DNA of 64,000 nt from Escherichia phage vB_EcoM_SQ17: sequence record MW882907, one strand, 5' to 3'. Every line of letters starts with the position of its first letter. Position 1 is the stretch's first letter. Shown here piece by piece: positions 1 to 64,000 of the stretch. The position numbers and the translations under genes were made by a program. The notes under the pieces were generated by a model. That model saw only the letters and a list, made by a program, of their open reading frames with translations. It did not search any database and was not told the origin of the DNA.

Positions 1-2214
1 TTATTTGGCCGCTTCCACGGCCTTCATGAATTTAACGATTTGAGCGACCTGTTCTTTAGAAAGAGTACCACGTCGTCCCATGTATTCTGACACAATATGA
101 TAATTGGTTTCAAATTCAATAACCATTTTATCATCATTATCGTAAGCATTATCTTTAAGCTTATCGAAAATTTTAGCACACAATTCTAACTTCCTGTTCA
201 GTTCTCTGTTAGTAGCACCTGAGAATCGATTCCATCCCCAACGATTATTTACTGTTGAAAGTTTTGCAAAATCTTTACTGATTTCTTTGTTCTTAGAGCT
301 AAAATACTTACTAAGGAAGTTAAGCTCTTCATTACGAGTAATATGATTCAAATAAGGCTGTGCTCTACGACTTGGTGATACATACTCATCATAATCCACT
401 TTATCAATTAGCGTAATATAGTCATTAATTGATTTTTCGAACAAGCATTCTACTTCGCCAAGTTTACGAACTTTCTTAGCAATCTGTGGACGGACCACAG
501 TGAACTCTTTAATACCTGACAAATCAGCAATACGGGTCAAGAAATTGGAGTCATAGTTCAACCAACCTTTATCTGCGTCAAGACATTCAGCATTAGAACG
601 ATTACGAACTATAGCATAACCTTGGATTTCATCAGCTTCACTCGCTGGAATAAAGAGATCTTCTGATACCCAAACATCGTTTTCATTCTTAAAGAACCGA
701 TGAGCACTTGGGGATTTAGGACGAGGCCCATTAGAACGAGTTTTGACTTCAATCCATGGCTTAACGATTTGTAAAAGCTCTGAAGTCTTGTACATGTTAA
801 TGTTGTCGCCATCAAAGATAACTTTAAGGCGTTCCAGAAGTTTCATTGCATCTTCGTCTGTAGGGTCAACGAATAGTACGCTTTTACCAAAACCGCGTGG
901 AACTTTACCGGTTAATTTAACCTCGTCTTTAGACATTTCAATTGAATTAAGAGCTCGCATTAATGGAACACGTCCCTTAACGTCGTCAATAACAATTTCA
1001 ACGTTTTTAATATTGATGCCAATCAGACTGTTAATTGAAATAGTTGCAGATGAGCTACCACTTTCACGAATACGACGAAGACGAGGGTCTTCAATGATAT
1101 CGTATACGACGCCGAGATTACACCATTCGGGTCCCATTTTAAAACGTTTGTACAACTCAGAATAAGTTAGTTGTTCTTTAGAATATTTCAGAGATTCAAT
1201 ATTAGACCCAGCCTTTTCCATGTATTTACGAGCGGTATAGCCAAGAGAATCAATTTCACGGAACACATGACGCGGGTATTTACAATCAATCCATTTCTTA
1301 GAATCTTCAGCAAATAATTTTGCATCGATTTCTGCAACGCGTTTATGGATATTTGCTACTGTACGTTTATCAAATGACAATGCTTCACGAGACGGGGCTA
1401 CATCTAGTTCACCCATAGGGAATTTAATATAAGCTGTAGTGCATCGCGTCATCATCCATGTTTGTTCTTTAATAACACTTCCGATTGGATATACAATACC
1501 ACCATAAACAGCCATGATATTACCACGTTCACCCCATGGAGCTTCCTTGGCTAAATAAACATCATCGAATTCCGGGAAGTATTTGATATCTTTAACACCA
1601 CGAACTTCTGCAATATCGCCGAGAGGACGCATAACATAAGCAATTTCGGATGCGAACTTTTCAAAATCTTCTGGGTTAACTGGTACAACTACTTCTACAC
1701 CCGTACGGTCATCAGGACCCATCTTATCTACGAAGGTTGGCTTAATCTGTGGACCGCTGTCATCTTGATAAATTACATAACCACGAACTTCACCATTGTG
1801 ATAAGACGTAAGGTTAAACGTATCGGTATATGCTAGTGGAGCTTTAGAGCCGAGTCCGAATCCACCAATGAAATCGTTACTCGATGTTTTAGTTGAAGCA
1901 AAATATGAGTTATAAATTCCTGGCTCTTCGTCATTACCTCGAATGGTGAAATCACTCATACCAGGACCAAAGTCTCGAACTACAAAACGTGGGTCTAAAC
2001 GACCTGGAGCCTGAACAATAAACTTATCAGTGCAACCATTAAGAATTTGACCATCGATACAGTTTGTGATTAATTCACGTACACAAGCCAATTCTTTGTT
2101 TGTATAAAGGTCATTAGACAAAATCTTATAAACTTTGCTATTGCCTTGAATAGTAAATGCTGTGCTCTTACCGCCTGAACCAATAATCGTTTCTTTAGCC
2201 GTTTCAATAATCAT
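1..2214 (-). CDS. rIIA: rIIA protein (GHKL/Bergerat-fold ATPase-like N-terminus)
   Basis: 737 aa; translation aligns along its length with remembered T4 rIIA (MIITTEKETILGNGSK..., ...GGFGLGSK...); TAA stop at 1-3, ATG at 2212-2214; followed by rIIA.1-like ORF and gene 39 as in T4. Confidence 0.9.
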   Translation of the reverse strand: MIIETAKETIIGSGGKSTAFTIQGNSKVYKILSNDLYTNKELACVRELITNCIDGQILNGCTDKFIVQAPGRLDPRFVVRDFGPGMSDFTIRGNDEEPGIYNSYFASTKTSSNDFIGGFGLGSKAPLAYTDTFNLTSYHNGEVRGYVIYQDDSGPQIKPTFVDKMGPDDRTGVEVVVPVNPEDFEKFASEIAYVMRPLGDIAEVRGVKDIKYFPEFDDVYLAKEAPWGERGNIMAVYGGIVYPIGSVIKEQTWMMTRCTTAYIKFPMGELDVAPSREALSFDKRTVANIHKRVAEIDAKLFAEDSKKWIDCKYPRHVFREIDSLGYTARKYMEKAGSNIESLKYSKEQLTYSELYKRFKMGPEWCNLGVVYDIIEDPRLRRIRESGSSSATISINSLIGINIKNVEIVIDDVKGRVPLMRALNSIEMSKDEVKLTGKVPRGFGKSVLFVDPTDEDAMKLLERLKVIFDGDNINMYKTSELLQIVKPWIEVKTRSNGPRPKSPSAHRFFKNENDVWVSEDLFIPASEADEIQGYAIVRNRSNAECLDADKGWLNYDSNFLTRIADLSGIKEFTVVRPQIAKKVRKLGEVECLFEKSINDYITLIDKVDYDEYVSPSRRAQPYLNHITRNEELNFLSKYFSSKNKEISKDFAKLSTVNNRWGWNRFSGATNRELNRKLELCAKIFDKLKDNAYDNDDKMVIEFETNYHIVSEYMGRRGTLSKEQVAQIVKFMKAVEAAK

Positions 2215-2226
2215 ATTTTTCTCTCA

Positions 2227-2427
2227 TCACAAGTTACGTTTAAAAATTTCTGCTACTTCAAGAAGTTCTTCTTTAGTAGCTGTATCGGTTTGTATTTTAT
2301 ATCGAATTTCTTTAAAGCGTTCTTTAAAGGACTCTGCTGACTCGATATCAAAAAATCTTTGGATAAGCCGGAATTCCCGGAGCACAGCTTTATCAAAAAG
2401 TTCCAAGTCCACGTTATATGTTCTCAT
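2227..2427 (-). CDS. small conserved protein, rIIA.1-like by position
   Basis: 66 aa ORF immediately downstream of rIIA on the same strand; size and position match T4 rIIA.1. Confidence 0.45.
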   Translation of the reverse strand: MRTYNVDLELFDKAVLREFRLIQRFFDIESAESFKERFKEIRYKIQTDTATKEELLEVAEIFKRNL

Positions 2428-2519
2428 AATATTCTCTTCAGTAGATTCCTAGGGCACTATTACTAAAGACCATATAATCCATCATCTTATGTGTAATAGT
2501 ACCTCAGGCTATTCAGGAT

Positions 2520-3620
2520 TTACGCTGTGAAGATTTTATCCCACATCGCAACAACTGCATCTCGGTTATACTTCTTCCATACTGCTTCAGCACGTTTAAC
2601 TCGAGCTTCGTATGTGTCGGTGAATTCTAATACAGCTTTTGTGTAAAGCGCAACTACTTCTTTCTTAGGAGTAGAGGAATCAATTTCTACACGCACAGTA
2701 TCTGGGTCGTATTCGAATGTCGCATGAGGATAATCCTTAAAAACTAACTGGATTACAGGGACACCTTTAGAGATGGCTTCAATAGAACTATTCTCTACTG
2801 TACCTGTGTCAGGACATGTATTAATAAGTGCTTTAGCTGTTTTAAGACGTTCCATGATTTCACTGTGTGGAGCATCAATAATAACAGGATATTTAGCTGG
2901 TGGGGCCCATTTACTAGGACAGTATCCTACACCATTTTCGCCTAGTGCTTTAATAGCTTCAAGAGCAACATCAGTACGACGCATTTTAGTGTCATAACGT
3001 TGTGCACTAATAATCAGATCAGTCGCCGGGAGAACTTCAGGTTTCTCATTCAAACAAATAACCGGATAATCTTCGGCTTCAAACAAAGGATTTGCTCGCC
3101 AATAATCATAATCAATTTTGTCAGTCAGAGCTGAAGTCATATGGCAATATTTACGTTCAAATTCACGGAAGGCTTTAGTAGGAGCATAACTCTTACCACC
3201 ATTCTTATGAATTTGAATAGTCTGGTCCCAAATTTGAACAATGCCACGAGATACCGGTTCAAATGGTGTTGCCATAAAATTCTTATGAACTTTAGAGAGA
3301 CCTGCGTCTTTAATTGCCTGAACGGTTAGTTTAGTCGGTTCCATAGTAACAACAAAATCGTATTCATGGATGCCGGCTAGTTCAACAATCTTACGAGCCA
3401 TAGTATAACTCATACCTAGACTGAATTTAGTCAGATGACCAACAGGATGGTGTGTAACTTTCCAGTCACCAAACGTGTCATTATCAAAGCCGATATAATC
3501 AATATCAGCACCGATGGACACAAGATATTTTAACACATTTAAATGTACTGCTTCAAGGCCACCTTGTACACGGTCAGGATTAAATGGGACTGCACGAGAT
3601 GGGATAAACATAACTTTCAT
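2520..3620 (-). CDS. GT-B fold glycosyltransferase; candidate hydroxymethylcytosine-DNA arabinosyltransferase
   Basis: 366 aa; N-terminus MKVMFIPSRAVPFNPDRVQGGLEAVHLNVLKYL resembles GT4-type N-terminal nucleotide-sugar fold; C-terminal TGTVENSSIEAISKGVPVI resembles the GT4 ExxxxxxxE region; sits where T4 carries gene 60/mobA; transferase substrate is inference. Confidence 0.6.
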   Translation of the reverse strand: MKVMFIPSRAVPFNPDRVQGGLEAVHLNVLKYLVSIGADIDYIGFDNDTFGDWKVTHHPVGHLTKFSLGMSYTMARKIVELAGIHEYDFVVTMEPTKLTVQAIKDAGLSKVHKNFMATPFEPVSRGIVQIWDQTIQIHKNGGKSYAPTKAFREFERKYCHMTSALTDKIDYDYWRANPLFEAEDYPVICLNEKPEVLPATDLIISAQRYDTKMRRTDVALEAIKALGENGVGYCPSKWAPPAKYPVIIDAPHSEIMERLKTAKALINTCPDTGTVENSSIEAISKGVPVIQLVFKDYPHATFEYDPDTVRVEIDSSTPKKEVVALYTKAVLEFTDTYEARVKRAEAVWKKYNRDAVVAMWDKIFTA

Positions 3621-18615: not shown

Positions 18616-19275
18616 TTAACCTCGATTCATAAATGCATTAAATATTTGGTCATCAACAGAAATTTCTAATTCGACTTCAATTGCTTCAGCCTTTTCTTCA
18701 GGTGGTAATTCGTATCCACACACTACAATTTTTTCATCGATATCAAAATACACAGAAGCAATATGATTAATGTTATTTTCGGTTAAGTCTAAATCAACAT
18801 CAACATCTTTTTGACCTACACTTAAAGGATAACTAATACGGGTTATTTTATTATCTTTAACAAAGAGTCCACCAACATACTCTGTACTACGTTTGAAGTT
18901 TACACGTTTCCGAAATGAAAGATATGATGCATCTTTACCGTGAGCTCGGCTCATAGGACATAATGAATAACTAGAATAAGAGATGTCAAATCCTACACCT
19001 TCAATATGAGCCAACGTGTCATGATTAAACCAATTATAATCATATGCCAAATCCATTATATTGTAATATGTGAAAGGCACCGGATTAACATCATATGTTG
19101 TACCTTTAAAATCTGCCCAGGCAACGATTTCGTTATCTTTAACAATTACAAAAATTACACCAATATGATATCCGTTATTATTTTCATTCGGCGTTATATT
19201 ATAACATTGTGCATTAGGAAATTTACCATATTTAAATGGCGCATTTTTGTGCATATAATAAATCATATTATTCAC
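18616..19275 (-). CDS. hypothetical protein (61.2 position)
   Basis: 219 aa ORF. Confidence 0.5.
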   Translation of the reverse strand: MNNMIYYMHKNAPFKYGKFPNAQCYNITPNENNNGYHIGVIFVIVKDNEIVAWADFKGTTYDVNPVPFTYYNIMDLAYDYNWFNHDTLAHIEGVGFDISYSSYSLCPMSRAHGKDASYLSFRKRVNFKRSTEYVGGLFVKDNKITRISYPLSVGQKDVDVDLDLTENNINHIASVYFDIDEKIVVCGYELPPEEKAEAIEVELEISVDDQIFNAFMNRG

Positions 19276-19561
19276 CTGTGATTTCGGTTACGATATCTTT
19301 GTTATCGAAATTAGGGTCACAATACAAAACATAATTGTACTGCATGATACCGCCAGACTTAAGTTGTTCAACAACTTTATTAACCATATTAGGACGGTCT
19401 CGTTTAGTGATGTTCATGATATCAGAGAAGATTTGTTGTTCAACATCTTCTTGATTTGCAGTCATTGACCACTCACAGAGGTCTTTATCATAACCTGCCG
19501 TAACTGGAGCTGGTGCACATGATACTGCGAGTAAGATTGCTGCCAATGATAACCTTTTCAT
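19268..19561 (-). CDS. sp: Spackle periplasmic protein (superinfection exclusion, gp5 lysozyme inhibitor)
   Basis: 97 aa; signal peptide then AGYDKDLCEWSMTA ... SGGIMQYNYVLYCD matching remembered T4 Sp. Confidence 0.85.
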   Translation of the reverse strand: MKRLSLAAILLAVSCAPAPVTAGYDKDLCEWSMTANQEDVEQQIFSDIMNITKRDRPNMVNKVVEQLKSGGIMQYNYVLYCDPNFDNKDIVTEITGE

Positions 19562-27682: not shown

Positions 27683-28084
27683 TTATAGATTCGGTTTATA
27701 TGATTTAAATGTTTCGAATTCGCCTTTATTCATAAGAGCTTTGAATTCGTCAGGACGCATAGCTTTGTCATCGATAATCCAATCATATACTGGTTTATGT
27801 GTTAGCAAATTATGGTACTTCAATCCAATGTTTGCCAAGTTCTGAATCAGACTCGGGAGAATGTCAATTGCTATACGACCAGGACCGACTGACTTCATAC
27901 CGCGAGCAGTGTAAAGCGTTATTGTATGCCCTGCATCATACAGGGCATTAATGGCAGACACCATTTCGACGTCTGGTTTGAAGTTCACGTAATCACGATT
28001 GTTATTCCACTCTGTTATACAATCATCGACATCAAAACAAAGATTAAGCATGTTTTCTACACGGTGCATTAGATTCGTTCCCAT
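27683..28084 (-). CDS. HAD-superfamily phosphatase (KdsC/GmhB-like small sugar-phosphate phosphatase)
   Basis: 133 aa; motif I FDVDDCIT (DxDxT), motif II TLYTARG, C-terminal DWIIDDK; alternative ATG at 28067-28069. Confidence 0.65.
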   Translation of the reverse strand: MGTNLMHRVENMLNLCFDVDDCITEWNNNRDYVNFKPDVEMVSAINALYDAGHTITLYTARGMKSVGPGRIAIDILPSLIQNLANIGLKYHNLLTHKPVYDWIIDDKAMRPDEFKALMNKGEFETFKSYKPNL

Positions 28085-29754
28085 TGATGAGTGATATCGC
28101 CACCGATTGGACGATAGGAAACACCAGTTTCTTTATCAGTTAGTACCCATTTACCAGGATTTTTTGTAATCAGAGTAGCCGTTACAGGTTCTGCTACGTC
28201 ATAACTAATAGAACCGTCCTGAAGTACACGGCCCATGTTACGTAATTGCTTAGTCAGAAGTTCCATACCTTTATAATATGCGGCTACCGCTTTAAGTGGA
28301 TTATTCTTGAAATAACCACCTAATGCAATCCAGATAATTGCTACAGCCAAATGATGATACTCGTTAAACGAACTCATCTTTCCATATTTGTAAACTAATG
28401 GATTGATGTTAATAGTCACATTACAAGTTGTTTCATCAATAGTAAACTGCCCCCAGGTCGGATTAGCGTTGAATTCATCATAACCTGAAACAGCATAAAG
28501 CACTTTAGCTTCATCATACAATTTTGGCCCATAAATCTTGGTTTCGCCAAAATATCCACGAGGGTCGATAAACTTGACTTCGCCATTATCAGTAATCATA
28601 GTATTACTGAAGTTCGGGTCACCATGAATAACAGAGTACTGTCCCTGAGAACGGTTATGATAACGAATAAGGTGTTCTAAAGCTTGTTTCAGCATTGGCT
28701 TCAGACGCCCAATCTTAGTGTAGTTCACATGTGTGATTTTACCAAATGAATCAATCAATGGTTGAATACTTTCACAACGATCAATAACTTTAGTATAGAA
28801 TTCTTTAGTGAAATCACGACGAACAGTTTCAGGACTTACAAAATAAGTGTCTGTGCTGAATTTCAGTGCATCTAAAATTGCATCAACAATTTGTGGACGA
28901 GCAAGACTCGATTTGGATTTAATATATTCAAATGCCGGCTTACCTTTAATGCGTTCCATTTCAAAGTTATTTTCATTAACAGAAACTAACTGAGGAACTG
29001 AATCTGATTTCACTTTAAGATACCATGAAATCTCATCTTTCTGAAGAGCTCGGCCTTGTTCGGTTAATGCGAATTTAGTTACAGTTTCTTCACCAATTTC
29101 AACGGCATTAAAACTACGATTAAGTTCACGAACTTCATGAGCCTTTTCAAGTTTAGGCATATCACCTAAATCAATTAGATTCATAAGCTCTGATTTATTG
29201 AATGCGCTGCCGTAAAGGAATTCTACGAAATCACGTCCTTTGCAGTATTCATGAATTTCCTCATCAGTAGAACCCATATAGAATTCCCAGTCTTTGAACT
29301 GATAAATTCCTACAACATTACCACCTGTTGAACCTACGTTAGTGATATTTTCGCCGTCGAAATTATATCGACATTCGTCACCCTTAACATAGATTGCGTT
29401 AACATTCCAAGACCATGAACCAAAATCAGGAATAATATCACACCAGTTAACAATTACATTATGGCCGTCTAAATCTTTGTGTAATTTAGCAAGAGCATAA
29501 GCAGAACCATACGCTTCATCAACTGTACGAATAGTCACATTGAACCCTTCTTGCTCACAATAAGCTCGAACAGTTTCAGCAAATTTTGAATGAACTACTA
29601 CAATAATTTCATCTGCGCCAAGGTCAGAATAAATTGTATACAAATTGCTCAGAATAGTGTCTTGTTTATAGTTAACAAGCACCTTAGGAATATGATGCGT
29701 TATTGGATACAAACGAGTTGCCAGTCCAGCACCAAGAATAACAGCTTTTTTCAT
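28069..29754 (-). CDS. bifunctional sugar-1-phosphate nucleotidyltransferase (N-terminal) and APH/choline-kinase-like sugar kinase (C-terminal)
   Basis: 561 aa; N-terminal ILGAGLATRL sugar nucleotidyltransferase signature; C-terminal IHGDPNFSNTMITDNGEVKFIDPRG kinase catalytic loop (HGD...N, IDxx). Confidence 0.75.
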   Translation of the reverse strand: MKKAVILGAGLATRLYPITHHIPKVLVNYKQDTILSNLYTIYSDLGADEIIVVVHSKFAETVRAYCEQEGFNVTIRTVDEAYGSAYALAKLHKDLDGHNVIVNWCDIIPDFGSWSWNVNAIYVKGDECRYNFDGENITNVGSTGGNVVGIYQFKDWEFYMGSTDEEIHEYCKGRDFVEFLYGSAFNKSELMNLIDLGDMPKLEKAHEVRELNRSFNAVEIGEETVTKFALTEQGRALQKDEISWYLKVKSDSVPQLVSVNENNFEMERIKGKPAFEYIKSKSSLARPQIVDAILDALKFSTDTYFVSPETVRRDFTKEFYTKVIDRCESIQPLIDSFGKITHVNYTKIGRLKPMLKQALEHLIRYHNRSQGQYSVIHGDPNFSNTMITDNGEVKFIDPRGYFGETKIYGPKLYDEAKVLYAVSGYDEFNANPTWGQFTIDETTCNVTININPLVYKYGKMSSFNEYHHLAVAIIWIALGGYFKNNPLKAVAAYYKGMELLTKQLRNMGRVLQDGSISYDVAEPVTATLITKNPGKWVLTDKETGVSYRPIGGDITHQWERI

Positions 29755-29795: not shown

Positions 29796-29939
29796 CTAGT
29801 TAAAGCATTCATACTTTGCTTGTAGTCCAATCATAATCCATCCGATTACAAGTGTTGGAATCATTACTGGAGCCGTTAAGCTCCAGTAGATAGTCATGAC
29901 AAGCATCAATAGTAAAAGTCCTATTGTTATTGCTTTCAT
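29796..29939 (-). CDS. small membrane peptide (47 aa), translationally coupled, absent from ORF track
   Basis: ATG overlaps the TAA of the isomerase gene (TAATG); translation MKAITIGLLLLMLVMTIYWSLTAPVMIPTLVIGWIMIGLQAKYECFN is strongly hydrophobic. Confidence 0.35.
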   Translation of the reverse strand: MKAITIGLLLLMLVMTIYWSLTAPVMIPTLVIGWIMIGLQAKYECFN

Positions 29940-30571
29940 TATTCGCCTCGTAACATGGCACCTAGTGCACCACCAGGGTGGAACTTAAGGAAGTCATTAG
30001 AGGTAAATCCACGCTCAGATGAAAGGTTGATAGCAAAAGTATCGATAAGCGCTAACAACAATGTAGTGGACATGGTCGGAGCCAGAGAATTCTCATCAAC
30101 CTCTACTGCGATGCCTGTACAGAAAGAGTAATCAAAAAGGGCTTCATTTTCTTGTGGAATGTCTGGGTTACAATGCAACAGAATCTGTTTGACGTTCGGA
30201 CGAATCATTTTAAGATGCTTAGCCACGCCTATCATTTCTTCAGTTTTACCGGAACGACTAATATGAATCAACACATCATTAGGCGCAATGAATCCTGCAT
30301 CACCGTGAGAATAATGCCCAGTGTTCAAGTACATACTCGGGATACCGAGTGAAGCAAATGTCTCAGAAGCTTTAGTTGCAATATTAGCATTCTTACCAAC
30401 ACCTGTAATAATTACTCGGCTTTCATAATTACTAAGTCCTGGGCGTCGAAGAGTTTCTAGAATAGCATTATAACGAGCAGGGTTTTGACTAATTACTTTG
30501 GCCATAGCGGCCAAAGAAGAAGCTTGTTTTATGATTGCGTCAATAGCGATAGTAATAGGAGTAGTTTTCAT
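29939..30571 (-). CDS. D-arabinose-5-phosphate isomerase, KdsD/GutQ-like single SIS domain
   Basis: 210 aa; ITGVGKNANIATKASETFASLG, HISRSGKTEE, LAPTMSTT and FHPGGALG align with the KdsD SIS domain hallmarks (GxGKSG, SNSG, LAPTSSTT, HPGGALG). Confidence 0.8.
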   Translation of the reverse strand: MKTTPITIAIDAIIKQASSLAAMAKVISQNPARYNAILETLRRPGLSNYESRVIITGVGKNANIATKASETFASLGIPSMYLNTGHYSHGDAGFIAPNDVLIHISRSGKTEEMIGVAKHLKMIRPNVKQILLHCNPDIPQENEALFDYSFCTGIAVEVDENSLAPTMSTTLLLALIDTFAINLSSERGFTSNDFLKFHPGGALGAMLRGE

Positions 30572-59730: not shown

Positions 59731-60033
59731 TTAGATAGATTTAGGCTCTAATTTTATTTTCATGAACTCTGCAAATTGTCTGGCAGTTTTTATGCCTTGT
59801 TCATGACATTCAAATGCATCATCACAGGGGCTATTTTTGTAATGCTTTGCCATATACTTATAAAATTTTTCAGAATTCTCAACATTTTGAATTTCGAACA
59901 AAGTATATACGTTTTTAATCCCTGATTCCATAAAGTTGTCAAAGTACGGGTCTACATATGCAGTGCCAACGATAGGAGTTGTTGCTGCAAAAAACCCCAG
60001 CATCGCCACAATGGCTATCGCTCTTAAGGCCAT
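59731..60033 (-). CDS. rI: RI lysis-inhibition regulator (antiholin partner)
   Basis: 100 aa; N-terminal signal-anchor then DPYFDNFMESGIKNVYTLFE ... SPCDDAFECHEQG matching remembered T4 RI. Confidence 0.85.
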   Translation of the reverse strand: MALRAIAIVAMLGFFAATTPIVGTAYVDPYFDNFMESGIKNVYTLFEIQNVENSEKFYKYMAKHYKNSPCDDAFECHEQGIKTARQFAEFMKIKLEPKSI

Positions 60034-60867: not shown

Positions 60868-61057
60868 AAGAGTCCTTAGTTAAATTTTCTAAATATGTTT
60901 CTAAATCATTTTCAGCTTTATCGATAGATTTTACTAATTCGTAGTATGTTTCAGCATCTCCATAATCCGAAGCCAATTCAAAAGATAAATCTCGTTCTAA
61001 ACTAATAATTTCGCTGATTAAAAATCGTATTTCATTCTTTTGTTCGCGAGTAATCAT
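60860..61057 (-). CDS. hypothetical protein
   Basis: 65 aa acidic ORF. Confidence 0.4.
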   Translation of the reverse strand: MITREQKNEIRFLISEIISLERDLSFELASDYGDAETYYELVKSIDKAENDLETYLENLTKDSYG

Positions 61058-61260
61058 AAGGAATTTATATAATCAATAAGTTCTTGTTCTTTATCGTCGA
61101 AATCTTTACACAGTTCTTCGTATTCGTCGGTATTAAAAGGACCGCATTCATCGCAAACTTTTTCCAATTCACTATTTTTATCCATAACTTCGTGAATAAG
61201 AGAAAATAGTCTGTCTTTTTGTTCTTTACTTAAACTCATAACCATGTAACCTTTAAGCAA
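61054..61260 (-). CDS. hypothetical protein
   Basis: 68 aa acidic ORF. Confidence 0.4.
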   Translation of the reverse strand: MLKGYMVMSLSKEQKDRLFSLIHEVMDKNSELEKVCDECGPFNTDEYEELCKDFDDKEQELIDYINSL

Positions 61261-61463
61261 TATTCTTCTACATGTTGTTTACGACCTTTCTTATCAATAA
61301 AGGTATATTCAACGAATGTTCCGATGTAGTCTTTATCTACATCATGTGGACTATTAATTGGGCATTTAGTACGGCAAATGCGTTCCCATTGACGAATAAT
61401 TACTGCCTTATTCTTTGGGTCATATGGATGTGGATAATGTATATTCATAATAATGGTTCCCAA
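61236..61463 (-). CDS. hypothetical protein
   Basis: 75 aa ORF. Confidence 0.4.
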   Translation of the reverse strand: MGTIIMNIHYPHPYDPKNKAVIIRQWERICRTKCPINSPHDVDKDYIGTFVEYTFIDKKGRKQHVEEYCLKVTWL

Positions 61464-61942
61464 TCAACAATCACAATTTCTAGTTTAGTGGAATACGTAT
61501 CTAAAATCTCTTCGATGATATCCCAGTTTCCGCCACCGATACCTGCACCAATTCTTGGCATATAAATTACAGGCTTTGTTATCTTATTCTTTCCGAATTC
61601 ATTTAATTCTATTATACAATTCATTAAAGCAGAGTACTCAAAATTAGGTCCTGGCTCAAACTGTGTATAAAGATTAAAGCAATAAGCTTTATGTGTCTTA
61701 AAATATTTTTCATAAACCGAATAAGTCCCGAGTTTAGACTCGTCTCCGAATTCGGTTTGAAGTTTATCGGCTTCCAGAATTTTTGGATAAGCCTTTGCTA
61801 ATTGTCCTGCCACACCAGCGCCCATTGTATGAAAACAATTACACCCATGAGCGATATTATTACCTTTAGAAAACAGGGCGACAATATCGCCCTTGATATA
61901 GTTTTTAATCACTTGCTGCAAGTCCTCTAGTATAAGAGTCAA
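61445..61942 (-). CDS. macro-domain protein (ADP-ribose binding or hydrolysing)
   Basis: 165 aa; HGCNCFHTMGAGVAGQLA and RIGAGIGGGNW match macro-domain signature blocks. Confidence 0.6.
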   Translation of the reverse strand: MTLILEDLQQVIKNYIKGDIVALFSKGNNIAHGCNCFHTMGAGVAGQLAKAYPKILEADKLQTEFGDESKLGTYSVYEKYFKTHKAYCFNLYTQFEPGPNFEYSALMNCIIELNEFGKNKITKPVIYMPRIGAGIGGGNWDIIEEILDTYSTKLEIVIVDWEPLL

Positions 61943-62252
61943 CTAGGCGGTCCACCATAGAATTGCATGCTGCCTTATCTTTAGGTTCCGCCACCGAGCA
62001 TTCTAATATTTGCCATTTTTTATAGTATCTTTTAATTAAGGTAGACGCCTTGAACCTACTAGACGCCCCATCTTTTTCTCCGTCTTTATACGCATATAAC
62101 AATTTTTGTGAAAAATCTACTTTACACTCTTGACTTTTACCACAATAATCAGACGCTGTTCTGTTTGTATACTCCGTTACATCAGTATATGTAGTATTAG
62201 CAAGAGCGTTAAATGAAACCAAGCCAACTATTAAAGCCAACATTTTGGTCAT
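61905..62252 (-). CDS. secreted or periplasmic protein
   Basis: 115 aa with N-terminal signal peptide. Confidence 0.45.
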   Translation of the reverse strand: MTKMLALIVGLVSFNALANTTYTDVTEYTNRTASDYCGKSQECKVDFSQKLLYAYKDGEKDGASSRFKASTLIKRYYKKWQILECSVAEPKDKAACNSMVDRLVDSYTRGLAASD

Positions 62253-62791
62253 TCTTTTATTTCCAGTAGTTTGGTTGATTTAAGGTAATTAGCCTTTTCT
62301 AGGACTTCAGAAGCATATTTACTTCCAGCACTTGTCTTCCATCCCGCATTATATGAGGATATAGCTTTTCTTATATCCCCGTTATGTATATTTAACCAAT
62401 AAGAAAATTCGATATAAGCCCATCTGGCTGAATTAGACCGCTTAGATAGCATTTTCTTAATTTGGGCATCAGTCATATTATAACCAAGCTGGTTAATTCT
62501 TGCCCTCATTGTTGGTAGATAATTTTGGAACATTCCATACGCATGGTGACCTTTCTTATCTTTAAGATTAATACCGGCAGATGATTCCTGCCATAGTATT
62601 GCGGCCATTATGTATCCAAGTCCTTTCTTATGCATATTTTCATGCGTTTTAAATTTTCCATCCTTAGAAAACTGTTCCCCAAACTGATAAGCATAATTCA
62701 AGTTATCGAGTTGGACATTACTAAAAGTATGCTCGGAGCTATGTGCTGATAACGAAAGAGCAAATAGACCAGCGAGTAGTGCTTTTCTCAT
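62249..62791 (-). CDS. periplasmic lytic transglycosylase (SLT domain)
   Basis: 180 aa; signal peptide; catalytic ES-motif LWQESS and downstream SYNAG. Confidence 0.6.
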   Translation of the reverse strand: MRKALLAGLFALSLSAHSSEHTFSNVQLDNLNYAYQFGEQFSKDGKFKTHENMHKKGLGYIMAAILWQESSAGINLKDKKGHHAYGMFQNYLPTMRARINQLGYNMTDAQIKKMLSKRSNSARWAYIEFSYWLNIHNGDIRKAISSYNAGWKTSAGSKYASEVLEKANYLKSTKLLEIKE

Positions 62792-62799
62792 GTTTACCT

Positions 62800-63258
62800 C
62801 TAGATTTTAATCACTGCTTTAGAAGCTTTTCCTGGTAGTCGTTTACTGTTAATAATAGCCATTCTGCATTGAAGAGTCTTCATTTTGAATGCTGGATTTT
62901 CGCGACAAACTGTAAGTCCTAACCAAAGATTTCCGTCAGTTATTTCTAAACGGCCTGGACGATATTCGACACCTTCGACAAAATCTTCGTCAACATCTGG
63001 ACGTGCCGGCATTGATAAAAATTCTGCAACTTCTTTAACATGATTTTTTACTTTACGAAATAATTCAAAAACGTAGTTCTCATCTATTTCTCTCTGGATA
63101 GCACGATCTAAGAGATGTTGAGAATACTTGATATGAAAGCCTGGTAGTCCAAGAGACTTTGCAGCATCTTTTATACCGGCATTTATTTTGCGGAACTCCG
63201 TTTCAAAGATTCGACGGAGTTTATTACGGCGGATAAAAACGTCAGAATTGATAGTCAT
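62800..63258 (-). CDS. regB: RegB sequence-specific endoribonuclease
   Basis: 152 aa; near-identical to remembered T4 RegB (MTINTEVFIRRNKLRR ... RMAIINS.RLPGKASKAVIK). Confidence 0.85.
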   Translation of the reverse strand: MTINSDVFIRRNKLRRIFETEFRKINAGIKDAAKSLGLPGFHIKYSQHLLDRAIQREIDENYVFELFRKVKNHVKEVAEFLSMPARPDVDEDFVEGVEYRPGRLEITDGNLWLGLTVCRENPAFKMKTLQCRMAIINSKRLPGKASKAVIKI

Positions 63259-63287
63259 TTTTGATTTCTCCTCTAGTTGACAGGACT

Positions 63288-63316
63288 ATAGTAACACATC
63301 TAGAGGAGAAGTAAAC
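63288..63316 (-). promoter_or_regulatory. early promoter upstream of regB (-35 GTTTAC, -10 TACTAT)
   Basis: minus strand GTTTAC-ttctcctctagatgtgt-TACTAT, followed by GAGGAGA ribosome-binding site. Confidence 0.5.
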
Positions 63317-63320
63317 AACT

Positions 63321-63536
63321 TTATTGATAAAATGGAGTTAAAGCCCAAGATTCTTTAGATACCATATCGGCGAAATGCCTCATCTCTTCGATTTGGCGCC
63401 GACGCTGGTCGGCATAGTCTTCTTCGCCTTCTTCCTTACAATCTTCAAGGTCTTCTTCAAGATACTTTAAGTATTCACTACAAATTTTGTTGACCTTTTC
63501 TTGAAAGTCCAATAACCCAGTAATAGTAGAAGCCAT
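63321..63536 (-). CDS. hypothetical protein
   Basis: 71 aa acidic ORF. Confidence 0.45.
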   Translation of the reverse strand: MASTITGLLDFQEKVNKICSEYLKYLEEDLEDCKEEGEEDYADQRRRQIEEMRHFADMVSKESWALTPFYQ

Positions 63537-63802
63537 TAGTATTTTTCCTCAGGTCGAAATACTGCACGACATGCCCACATACTGGCTTCTTTTAGATGTT
63601 GCTTAGCATACTTAAGAGCCTGCACTGCATCCATATCTTCTTTGGTTTGTTGCTCTGTTTCATTTTCTTTCAAGATATACGCTTCTTCAATCAGAGCATC
63701 AAACATCAATCCAAGACGGACTTCGGCATCTTTAATAGCGTTCACTTTACCGATTTTATCGTCGGTATGCGGCTTGTAGCCTTTGATGTCTTCAATCGAC
63801 AT
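63536..63802 (-). CDS. hypothetical protein (88 aa)
   Basis: start set to ATG at 63800-63802 preceded by GAGGAA; the ORF-track N-terminal extension looks non-coding. Confidence 0.4.
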   Translation of the reverse strand: MSIEDIKGYKPHTDDKIGKVNAIKDAEVRLGLMFDALIEEAYILKENETEQQTKEDMDAVQALKYAKQHLKEASMWACRAVFRPEEKY

Positions 63803-64000
63803 AAGGAATTTCCTCATCGGTGGCAAGGTCATATTCGACCAATTGGATAGGCTCATTAATACCATATCCACGTACAGTGATATCAGTTGTCGGATAGTTT
63901 CCAGTAATATCACCCATTCTAAATGCTTCAGTGAATGATTGCTCGCCTGAGCAACTAAACCAGGCGGCAAAACATTTTAAAACATCTTCAGACCCTTCTA

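Follow-up and report, generated by a model that had tools for sequence, protein, structure and literature searches.

The window analyzed here, a stretch of 64,000 nucleotides from Escherichia phage vB_EcoM_SQ17 (record MW882907), showed 99% DNA identity to Mosigvirus genomes, and the source phage is a T4-like Mosigvirus. Positions 61905-62791 were filled exactly by two minus-strand open reading frames. The one at 62249..62791 encodes a precursor of 180 amino acids that is the orthologue of T4 Vs.1 (about 83% identity; phrog_600, E = 6.8e-67), and the Pfam, AlphaFold2, and Foldseek analyses described below led us to predict that it is an exported lytic transglycosylase of the SLT/GH23 type. The other, at 61905..62252, encodes a precursor of 115 amino acids, the orthologue of T4 Vs, the 'valyl-tRNA synthetase modifier' (67% identity; phrog_1256, E = 5e-35), and it is a predicted exported protein with four helices in the AlphaFold2 model and four Cys. 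The sequence places it in the Vs family, whose members bear PF26829. When tblastn was used, the 180-amino acid protein was found in 2060 phage records and the 115-amino acid protein in 795. The T4 counterparts are close in every respect that was compared: T4 Vs.1 (UniProt P13311; PHROG 600) agrees in length, in its signal-peptide-like N-terminus, in its motifs, and in its place between regB and vs, with no difference of substance, and the present gene is its Mosigvirus copy; T4 Vs (UniProt P13310; PHROG 1256; Pfam PF26829) shares length, N-terminus, the four Cys, and the C-terminal helix.

Both genes belong to a regB-vs.1-vs-tk.4 run, an order shared with T4 and five further genera. The run opens with the endoribonuclease gene regB (62800..63258, minus strand; Pfam REGB_T4, E = 8.8e-69), and the junction sequence showed that the GAGG ribosome-binding site of vs.1 shares nucleotides with the regB stop codon. 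The earlier note placed the pair upstream of regB, and this is true in plus-strand coordinates only; since regB, on the minus strand, is transcribed first, vs.1 and vs are downstream of it as the transcript runs. At the junction of the pair, the start codon of vs and the stop codon of vs.1 overlap in the sequence ATGA (62249..62252, minus strand), by which the translation of both genes is probably coupled. This junction is just as close, its extremes being 8 nt of overlap and 2 nt of spacing, in T4, VR20, kv_tblp8, IME523, CBH8, and Acinetobacter phage DP45, and it is overlapping or abutting across Tevenvirinae and Twarogvirinae. A promoter-like sequence read by eye 5' of regB (GTTTAC, 17 nt, TACTAT; 63285..63316, minus strand) resembles T4 early promoters and is the likely start of the transcript carrying vs.1 and vs. 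A sigma-70 scan did not report this sequence and gave no better promoter on the minus strand from regB to vs; the number of sites found by the sigma-70 and terminator scans was not above that in shuffled sequence. The Rfam search of positions 61000-64000 gave no match.

The earlier note described the 180-amino acid product as an SLT-domain protein, and this description was borne out. The Pfam SLT profile (PF01464) gave the protein of this phage 18.8 bits (E = 0.0013), below the gathering score of 21.3, and matched 51 of the 57 Vs.1 homologues at E ≤ 0.01, with a best E-value of 1.3e-7; several homologues in the databases also bear a precomputed PF01464. The alignment of 57 Vs.1 sequences showed that E69, S71, G86, Q89, N90, Y147, N148, and G150 are invariant, and these residues lie in three motifs. 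Motif I, E69-S70-S71 (62579..62587, minus strand), contains the catalytic-type Glu69. Motif II, G86-M-F-Q89-N90 (62522..62536, minus strand), aligned with GLMQ of Slt70 and is the counterpart of that motif in family-1 lytic transglycosylases, and Y147-N148-A149-G150 (62342..62353, minus strand), which follows a Ser residue, is the counterpart of AYNAG, with which it aligned in EtgA. In the hhalign comparison, E69 was matched to E505 in the precursor of E. coli Slt70, at a low probability with Slt70 as a single sequence. This residue is the catalytic E478 of the mature enzyme. In addition, E69 aligned with the Glu of the EtgA NES motif. The catalytic-type glutamate on which the earlier note made its claim depend was thus found in place.

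The AlphaFold2 model of Vs.1 (pLDDT 91.1, pTM 0.84) put E69 at the end of a helix spanning residues 59-70. When this model was compared with the PDB by Foldseek, the top matches were all GH23 or lysozyme-like proteins, with probabilities of 0.97-1.00 (best about 1), TM values of about 0.45-0.58, and E-values that were all above 0.001 (about 0.02); they included a Ralstonia GH23 chitinase, MltD, Slt, LtgA, T7 gp16, and phi6 P5. The sequence search of Vs.1 against PDB chains returned nothing, the profile search against PDB gave sub-threshold matches only, to EtgA (E = 0.73) and goose lysozyme, and NCBIfam had no match for Vs.1 or Vs. A T4-lysozyme-type gene was absent from the window, and Vs.1 showed no similarity to T4 lysozyme. 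Vs.1 is most likely a lytic transglycosylase; sequence does not separate a transglycosylase from a goose-type lysozyme. The sub-threshold Pfam score of this copy, the Foldseek E-values, and the low hhalign probability count against the SLT/GH23 assignment. A marginal SLT similarity of T4 vs.1 was described in 2003 and 2006 (PMC1524935), and the assignment is therefore not new.

The N-terminus of Vs.1 reads MRKALLAGLFALSLSAHS followed by SE, with a positive n-region, a hydrophobic core of 11 residues, and small residues at -3 and -1. We predicted a Sec signal peptide over codons 1-18 (62738..62791, minus strand), with a putative cleavage site at AHS/SE. The criteria were a positive n-region, a hydrophobic core of 7-15 residues, small residues at -3/-1, and a polar start of the mature protein, and by this heuristic, which is crude and not a dedicated predictor, both Vs.1 and Vs have a Sec type I signal peptide. 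Fifty-four of the 57 Vs.1 homologues were positive, and the negatives among the Vs.1 and Vs homologues were truncated or mis-started gene calls. Among the minus-strand reading frames of the window, the heuristic also flagged Spackle and RI, which are known periplasmic proteins. The identity among the Vs.1 sequences was 0.26 in the signal peptide versus 0.50 in the mature part, with charge and hydrophobicity kept, and the pLDDT of the model was low over the signal peptide. Signal peptides were also found in the Vs.1-type proteins of Ackermannviridae and Felixounavirus. We infer that Vs.1 is exported and that its signal peptide is cleaved, as the earlier note had it; the N-terminus is canonical and of the cleavable type.

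The features of Vs were similar. Its N-terminus reads MTKMLALIVGLVSFNALA followed by NT, and a Sec signal peptide was predicted over codons 1-18 (62199..62252, minus strand), with a putative cleavage site at ALA/NT, by the heuristic and its conservation. The heuristic was positive for 35 of the 37 Vs homologues, and the signal peptide is kept even in the distant Vs proteins of Acinetobacter and Pseudotevenvirus phages, its sequence drifting while the property is retained; it had a pLDDT of 48-54. No in-frame start codon was found past the signal peptide within the first 50 codons, and a cytoplasmic isoform is therefore not available. Moreover, the charge distribution favors an N-in, C-out orientation. 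The predicted mature protein has 97 amino acids and 11.0 kDa, and AlphaFold2 modeled a four-helix bundle (pLDDT 87; helices 20-37, 41-64, 69-85, and 90-114) whose C-terminal helix carries an invariant SMVDRLVDSYxRGL. The four Cys are invariant in the 37 sequences, and the distant Acinetobacter and Pseudotevenvirus proteins have them as well. Judged from the helices of the model, Cys37 and Cys43 (C-x5-C; 62124..62144, minus strand) flank the turn between helices 1 and 2, and Cys85 and Cys96 (61965..62000, minus strand) that between helices 3 and 4, and each pair probably forms a disulfide. With a canonical signal peptide, four invariant Cys, and a four-helix bundle, Vs does not fit a cytoplasmic role; the cytoplasmic location that binding to valyl-tRNA synthetase in vivo requires is not the one predicted from the signal peptide, the invariant Cys, and the lack of an internal start.

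Relatives of Vs outside its own family were sought by several routes. The Foldseek search of the PDB gave no fold match at E ≤ 0.001, solved inhibitors included, the sequence search against PDB chains gave noise only, the profile search against PDB gave nothing meaningful, and the Vs alignment had no match in Pfam. Among viral models, Foldseek found other Vs proteins only, plus weak lipoprotein-like matches. An exhaustive HMMER search recovered 7 representatives among 1.84 billion proteins and no cellular relatives. We considered Vs as an LprI-like lysozyme inhibitor, on a weak DUF1311 match in Foldseek (probability 0.08), and rejected it, as no member of the Vs alignment matched the DUF1311 Pfam. 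Within the set of papers searched, none notes a signal peptide in Vs or its misfit with a cytoplasmic role, and neither vs nor vs.1 is mentioned in the main text of the CRISPRi-ART paper or in the review of T4-related genomes.

Published T4 data bear on both genes and count toward a link between them. Their RNAs have been classed as early, and both proteins were detected by proteomics (PMC9697503 supplement). In the HIDEN-SEQ transposon analysis, mean insertion values in LB were 26.6 for vs and 22.6 for vs.1, and 179-767 for regB, vs.3, vs.4, tk.3, and tk.4; insertions fell further in M9, with log2FC of -2.19 (vs) and -0.87 (vs.1). The effect of vs.1 insertions may reflect polarity on vs. Of the T4 genes, vs was the one most strongly depleted in minimal medium, the reason being left open, and a vs knockout was impaired specifically in this medium, a defect that the authors connect with limited nutrients (bioRxiv 10.1101/2025.11.20.689424). 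T4 vs.1 is classed as non-essential.

As to the enzyme chemistry of Vs.1, any contact between Vs and Vs.1, and the biological role of the pair, we infer the following. Both genes would be co-transcribed early downstream of regB and probably coupled through the ATGA overlap. Vs.1 would be made with its type-I Sec signal peptide and become a soluble periplasmic protein of about 18.7 kDa, in which Glu69, as the sole acid/base, would cut peptidoglycan at the MurNAc-GlcNAc bond; lytic transglycosylase activity is the most likely. Vs would follow by its own signal peptide and mature to the 11-kDa four-helix bundle with two disulfides, and, given these predicted features, it would act in the periplasm too. 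There, it may regulate or target Vs.1, or share an envelope pathway with it, and the outcome would be a limited, non-lytic remodeling of the cell wall early in infection. Our best guess is thus an early, periplasmic, non-lytic peptidoglycan-remodeling module, and we give the explanation as a whole, an exported and early co-transcribed Vs.1 and Vs in cell-wall remodeling, a probability of about 0.55. The further proposal that the vs reading frame of T4-like genomes specifies a periplasmic protein, exported and stapled by disulfides, which acts together with the Vs.1 transglycosylase is tentative, and we hold it to be possible but rather doubtful. The earlier note, which did not identify the genes as T4 vs.1 and vs, spoke of a secreted partner. 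The secreted part of this held, as Vs also looks exported; the partner part did so less well, as Vs is the classical 'valyl-tRNA synthetase modifier' and is not an obligate partner: enzymes of the Vs.1 type are found unaccompanied by Vs in Ackermannviridae, Felixounavirus, and an Aeromonas phage, and in Pseudotevenvirus vs lies two genes from vs.1, past a terminator. Any part in the control of lysis or in superinfection is speculation, hinted at by the early transcription in T4 and by the proximity to rI only; in T4-like genomes both genes are near rI, with vs.1 a few genes from it.

The annotated function of Vs offers a different account, in which Vs is tau, a cytoplasmic peptide binding and stabilizing the host valyl-tRNA synthetase, its N-terminus does not serve export or the protein is only partly exported, the adjacency to vs.1 is an accident of a packed early cluster, and Vs.1 is alone in the periplasm. 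Every GenBank record and the PHROG bear this annotation; PMC8076793 grounds it in the biochemistry of the 1970s, in which Vs is the tau peptide binding the cytoplasmic synthetase (citing Muller and Marchin 1975 and 1977). The impairment of the T4 knockout specifically in minimal medium is in its favor, as are the Vs.1 proteins found without Vs and the separated genes of Pseudotevenvirus. The size of the protein can be read both ways: tau has some 10 kDa, close to the 11.0 kDa predicted for mature Vs, but a Vs/tau of about 10-11 kDa would mean cleavage of the signal peptide and, therefore, export of the protein. To carry out its annotated function, Vs would have to be cytoplasmic, whereas the sequence features predict an exported protein with disulfide bonds, and it is difficult to explain from a cytoplasmic protein the signal peptide that persists despite sequence drift, the four invariant Cys in a helical protein, the N-in, C-out charge distribution, and the lack of an internal start codon. 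Furthermore, T4 Vs was insoluble when expressed with a blocked N-terminus, the N-terminally His-tagged protein going to inclusion bodies (PMC8076793). Collectively, we regard a cytoplasmic Vs as somewhat unlikely.

Two further accounts keep the envelope as the site of action. Vs may be a periplasmic inhibitor or immunity protein that restrains Vs.1 or another muramidase until the time of its use, as Spackle does with the gp5 tail lysozyme. T4 Spackle (gp61.3) is likewise a small, all-helical, disulfide-containing periplasmic protein whose signal peptide is cleaved and which binds its muramidase 1:1 (PMC7650644); translational coupling would match the amounts of enzyme and inhibitor, and insertions in vs were more harmful in M9 than those in vs.1 (log2FC -2.19 versus -0.87). 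However, both genes were alike under-represented in LB, and this counts against restraint because the loss of an enzyme that needs only to be restrained should be neutral. Moreover, many Vs.1-type enzymes occur without Vs, and Vs had neither homology to Spackle nor a fold match to a solved inhibitor or any Pfam match; the hhalign probability for Vs and Spackle was 3.3%, and no Spackle entry was among the Foldseek PDB matches of Vs. We therefore hold an inhibitor to be unlikely. It is highly improbable that Vs.1 contributes to lysis at the end of infection as an auxiliary endolysin, secreted or of the SAR type, even though some Felixounavirus homologues are annotated as 'lysin', exported muralytic enzymes have a precedent in the SAR endolysins of phages, and vs.1 is a few genes from rI. 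Its RNA is early in T4, and the gene sits with regB in the early regB-tk cluster, not in a lysis cassette; the T4 genes e and t are still needed (insertion counts near zero) while vs.1 is non-essential; and in its N-terminus a small-x-small site comes after a short hydrophobic core of some 11 residues, as in cleaved signal peptides and unlike SAR anchors.

The enzyme half of the module is ordinary, a further copy of T4 vs.1 in a family that spans more than 2000 phage genomes. The interest lies in vs, a classical T4 gene whose product bears all the predicted marks of a periplasmic protein, which are irreconcilable with binding to a cytoplasmic synthetase in vivo. If Vs is indeed periplasmic, the tau or synthetase-modifier assignment to this reading frame would be wrong, or tau would meet the synthetase only after cell breakage, and an annotation copied into more than 1000 phage genome records would be corrected upon confirmation. 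An action in the envelope would also offer an alternative account of the depletion of vs in minimal medium, the defect of the T4 mutants being then an envelope and not a translation phenotype.

Vs.1 shares with the family-1 lytic transglycosylases of GH23 (E. coli Slt70, P. aeruginosa Slt and MltD, and Neisseria LtgA) the lysozyme-like helical fold, the ES, G-x-x-Q, and YNxG motifs, and a periplasmic location, which for Vs.1 is predicted. Unlike these enzymes, to which its similarity is weak, it is a stand-alone domain of about 160 amino acids that adds a helix and a hairpin at the N-terminus, lacks superhelical, LysM, and lipoprotein modules, and comes from a phage gene expressed early. It resembles EtgA, VirB1, and the P19-type proteins, which are small, Sec-exported, single-domain SLT enzymes specialized for machines that span the envelope; EtgA was among its few sequence matches in the PDB, and the NES and AYNAG motifs aligned in that non-significant match. 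EtgA activity is enhanced by EscI, and this pair would provide an earlier example of such an enzyme under the control of a small partner. An EscI-EtgA fusion has been crystallized (8urn). Vs is unrelated to EscI. T4-like phages are not known to need early insertion of any secretion or assembly machine.

A Spackle orthologue is encoded in the window at 19268-19561, and Spackle is like the predicted Vs in being early, Sec-exported, small, all-helical, disulfide-containing, and periplasmic. It differs in its target, the GH24 lysozyme gp5 of the superinfecting phage, and in that its gene is not next to an enzyme gene. Finally, T7 gp16 and phi6 P5, the phage proteins with a GH23-type fold among the Foldseek matches of Vs.1, serve in the virion or as endolysins and lack Sec signal peptides, whereas Vs.1 is early, predicted to be exported, and, in T4, non-essential.

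The interval 61905-62791 was found to be exactly occupied by two minus-strand ORFs, one of 180 aa (62249-62791; phrog_600) and one of 115 aa (61905-62252; phrog_1256, 'valyl tRNA synthetase modifier'). On the coding strand, regB (152-aa ORF at 62800-63258, minus strand; REGB_T4 match) lies directly 5' of the pair and a macro-domain ORF directly 3'. Many Escherichia and Shigella phages shared 98-99% identity with the DNA of 61400-63300, and one relative with a complete annotation is assigned to Mosigvirus, Tevenvirinae. Comparison with T4 (NC_000866) gave the gene order regB - vs.1 - vs - tk.4, with about 83% identity between the 180-aa protein and T4 vs.1 and 67% between the 115-aa protein and T4 vs, indicating that the two ORFs are orthologues of these genes; the PHROG assignments were consistent with this. 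As all these genes share the minus strand, transcription passes through regB before it reaches the pair; the pair is downstream of regB, and the position 'upstream of regB' given in the earlier note applies solely to plus-strand coordinates. The interval adds one more copy of a phage gene pair that is known but has yet to be characterised, and what that note called a secreted partner is the product of the classical vs gene. Database labels for both proteins vary: Vs.1 appears inconsistently in GenBank as 'leucine aminopeptidase, subunit E, domain 1' or 'lysin' and in one UniRef name as 'endoribonuclease', many GenBank records give Vs the name of the enzyme itself, 'valyl-tRNA synthetase', and a feature adjoining vs is named 'C-type lysozyme/alpha-lactalbumin family protein' in some Klebsiella phage records.

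The description of Vs.1 as an SLT-domain protein was right, as judged from motifs, family-level Pfam matches and fold. The window protein matched Pfam SLT marginally (18.8 bits, cut-off 21.3), and the profile was matched by 51 of 57 diverse homologues (best E-value 1.3e-7). Invariant positions in the 57-sequence alignment included E69 and S71 (WQESS), G86, Q89 and N90 (GMFQN), and Y147, N148 and G150 (SYNAG); in family-1 lytic transglycosylases, their counterparts are the ES, GLMQ and AYNAG motifs. A profile alignment with the Slt70 C-terminal domain (from the E. coli MG1655 genome), of weak statistical support, placed E69 on precursor Glu505, which is catalytic Glu478 of the mature enzyme, and paired GMFQ with GLMQ; the catalytic-type glutamate, whose absence the earlier note had named as the refuting outcome, is therefore present. 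The AlphaFold2 model (pLDDT 91.1, pTM 0.84) was confident except for the first 20 residues, and the PDB entries that Foldseek matched best to it were all GH23 or lysozyme-like enzymes, i.e., a Ralstonia GH23 chitinase, P. aeruginosa MltD and Slt, Neisseria LtgA, T7 gp16, and phi6 P5 (the best with probability 0.97-1.00 and TM about 0.45-0.58; no E-value below 0.001). For Vs.1, sequence cannot separate a transglycosylase from a goose-type lysozyme. No T4-lysozyme-type gene was found in the window, and Vs.1 showed no similarity to T4 lysozyme. The SLT/GH23 call is not new: the similarity of T4 vs.1 to SLT was published by Nolan et al. (PMC1524935), and several GenBank records already name vs.1 'transglycosylase SLT domain-containing protein'.

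The N-termini of Vs.1 (MRKALLAGLFALSLSAHS/SEHTF) and Vs (MTKMLALIVGLVSFNALA/NTTY) both contain 1-2 basic residues and an 11-12-residue hydrophobic core, with small residues at -3 and -1 and no lipobox cysteine. Signal peptides were called with a crude heuristic and controls, not a dedicated predictor, and the result was positive in 54 of 57 Vs.1 and 35 of 37 Vs homologues, the five negatives being truncated or mis-started metagenomic gene calls. Both proteins are thus predicted to be exported, in agreement with the earlier proposal of a signal peptide on the SLT protein and of another secreted protein behind it. As a control, the heuristic was run on the minus-strand ATG-ORFs of the window with 60 aa or more, and it flagged six: Vs and Vs.1 themselves, the orthologues of Spackle (19268-19561, minus; phrog_1586) and of the RI antiholin (59731-60033, minus; phrog_1246), and two probable false positives. 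Spackle and RI are periplasmic in T4 and served as positive controls; cleavage of the Spackle signal peptide has been shown experimentally (PMC7650644), and the study of RI concludes that this protein has a cleavable signal peptide (PMC8385771). Mean pairwise identity was 0.26 in the N-terminal 18 residues versus 0.50 in the mature part for Vs.1, and 0.43 versus 0.59 for Vs, with positive charge and hydrophobicity kept throughout both N-termini despite the faster divergence. Such drift is typical of signal-peptide evolution. Similar N-termini were observed in Vs.1-type proteins from other families of phages, for example those of Kuttervirus SJ2, Felixounavirus Andreotti, Aeromonas phage 50AhydR13PP, and Pseudotevenvirus Margaery.

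The function cited for Vs is binding of valyl-tRNA synthetase (PMC8076793), and its features do not look like those of a cytoplasmic protein with this role. Residues C37, C43, C85 and C96 were invariant in all 37 aligned homologues, and distant phrog_1256 members (Acinetobacter phage DP45, Citrobacter phage Margaery) retain the signal peptide and a four-Cys pattern. The AlphaFold2 model (pLDDT 87; residues 1-19 disordered) is a four-helix bundle (helices 20-37, 41-64, 69-85, and 90-114) in which the two cysteines of each pair lie on either side of a turn between helices; this placement suits disulfide staples, which we infer from it. No in-frame start codon able to yield a cytoplasmic isoform was found past the signal peptide, and the residues beyond the hydrophobic core are net acidic, favouring a C-terminus-out orientation even without cleavage. 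N-terminally His-tagged T4 Vs went to inclusion bodies (PMC8076793), weak evidence that fits a mis-localised secretory protein. The predicted mature Vs has 97 aa and 11.0 kDa. An exhaustive search of 1.84 billion proteins returned 7 Vs representatives, a tiny phage-only family confined to Straboviridae; no PDB fold matched Vs, and Vs is unrelated to Spackle. No remark on its signal peptide was found in the literature searched. The remaining interest is the conflict between the annotation of vs and its strongly conserved secretory features.

Only 8 nt separate regB from vs.1, whose ribosome-binding site, GAGG, is overlapped by the regB stop codon, and the vs.1 stop and vs start overlap in ATGA (62249-62252, minus). 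At this junction, the genes overlap by 8 nt in T4 and by 1 nt in Serratia phage CBH8 and Acinetobacter phage DP45, abut in VR20 and IME523, and are 2 nt apart in a Klebsiella phage; the tightness of the junction across genera makes translational coupling of vs.1 and vs likely. A consensus promoter scan of the coding strand from regB to vs gave nothing convincing, and a T4-early-promoter-like GTTTAC-17 nt-TACTAT upstream of regB (63285-63316, minus) was read by eye and is absent from the scan output. In T4, the vs and vs.1 RNAs are both of the early class, and both proteins were detected (PMC9697503 supplement). The regB ribosome-binding site (63259-63285, minus) includes GGAG, the RegB cleavage motif; those of vs.1 (62792-62806, minus) and tk.4 are GAGG, and that of vs is no more than a weak GGAA. 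A terminator-like hairpin (61875-61893, minus; 8 pairs plus a T-run) lies 12 nt past the vs stop, within the tk.4 5' end, and may be a chance occurrence, as the scan yielded no excess of such sites over shuffled sequence.

The coupled junction across Tevenvirinae and Twarogvirinae speaks for a partnership, and T4 transposon data (HIDEN-SEQ; bioRxiv 10.1101/2025.11.20.689424) point the same way. There, vs and vs.1 are both classed as non-essential (Extended Data Table 6), and mean insertion counts in the liquid LB control were 26.6 and 22.6, respectively, with 179 for regB, 652 for vs.3, 265 for vs.4, 290 for tk.4, and 767 for tk.3. Both counts fell further in M9-glucose: vs was the strongest hit (log2FC -2.19, adjusted p 0), confirmed with a clean knockout, and vs.1 gave a log2FC of -0.87 (p = 0.0055, adjusted p = 0.155). 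In sheet S8 of the same table, the pair had about 7-30-fold fewer reads than its neighbours even in LB, though 'non-essential', and regB insertions rose in M9 (log2FC +1.17); of the two genes of the pair, only vs is discussed in the paper. Against a partnership, vs.1 insertions may simply be polar on vs, the Pseudotevenvirus vs lies two genes beyond vs.1, past a terminator, and Ackermannviridae, Felixounavirus, and an Aeromonas phage have Vs.1-type enzymes but no Vs. The last two observations indicate that Vs is not an obligatory subunit; a functional link is plausible but unproven. In the Aeromonas phage 50AhydR13PP record, which has vs.1 and lacks vs, a lipoprotein-like protein (MKKSIAAILALSIYGC..., phrog_9490; 2496-2936) is encoded by the gene immediately upstream of tk.4, a few genes past vs.1.

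The reading we favour, with a probability of about 0.55, is that both proteins would be exported early in infection, Vs.1 would cleave glycan strands in a limited, non-lytic manner with Glu69 as acid/base, and Vs, in the same compartment, would modulate Vs.1 or serve the same envelope pathway; the gain from the pair would be greater in slow-growing cells. Given the secretory features of Vs, it is rather unlikely that this protein acts in the cytoplasm as the tau peptide of its classical annotation and adjoins Vs.1 by coincidence. We consider even more doubtful a Spackle-like inhibition of Vs.1 by Vs, against which the under-representation of vs.1 insertions argues, and very improbable that Vs.1 is an auxiliary endolysin, as vs.1 is expressed early and e and t are still required. 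The lysis-control or superinfection role suggested in the earlier note is speculation, and its sole hint is gene position: vs.1 and vs are a few genes from rI, and in Acinetobacter phage DP45 they are within a short run of exported-protein genes near a 'lysis inhibition' gene. The run is compact: in that record (1438-3284), the gene after vs.1 and vs also encodes a signal-peptide-like N-terminus (phrog_4957, MKLKAALLSLLLVSPFAAA...), and the gene annotated 'lysis inhibition' is one gene beyond it.

The macro-domain ORF 3' of vs is the tk.4 orthologue (61445-61942, minus; Pfam Macro, E = 1.7e-6), and its T4 counterpart has recently received the name AdfM as an anti-DarTG2 factor (bioRxiv 10.1101/2025.11.20.689424). 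Its ORF-finder start is TTG 61942, 38 nt within vs; an alternative start, GTG 61912, preceded by GAGG, would give a 155-aa product that agrees with T4 Tk.4 in length and N-terminus, and in one related GenBank record the gene has only a shorter CDS of 126 aa. Elsewhere in the window, a 561-aa protein of unknown function (28069-29754, minus; phrog_4098) carries an N-terminal GAGLATR nucleotide-binding-like motif, and its gene adjoins an arabinose-5-phosphate isomerase-like gene (29939-30571, minus; phrog_5670). Together, these two genes may serve a sugar-modification pathway of Mosigvirus DNA, comparable to RB69-type arabinosylation.
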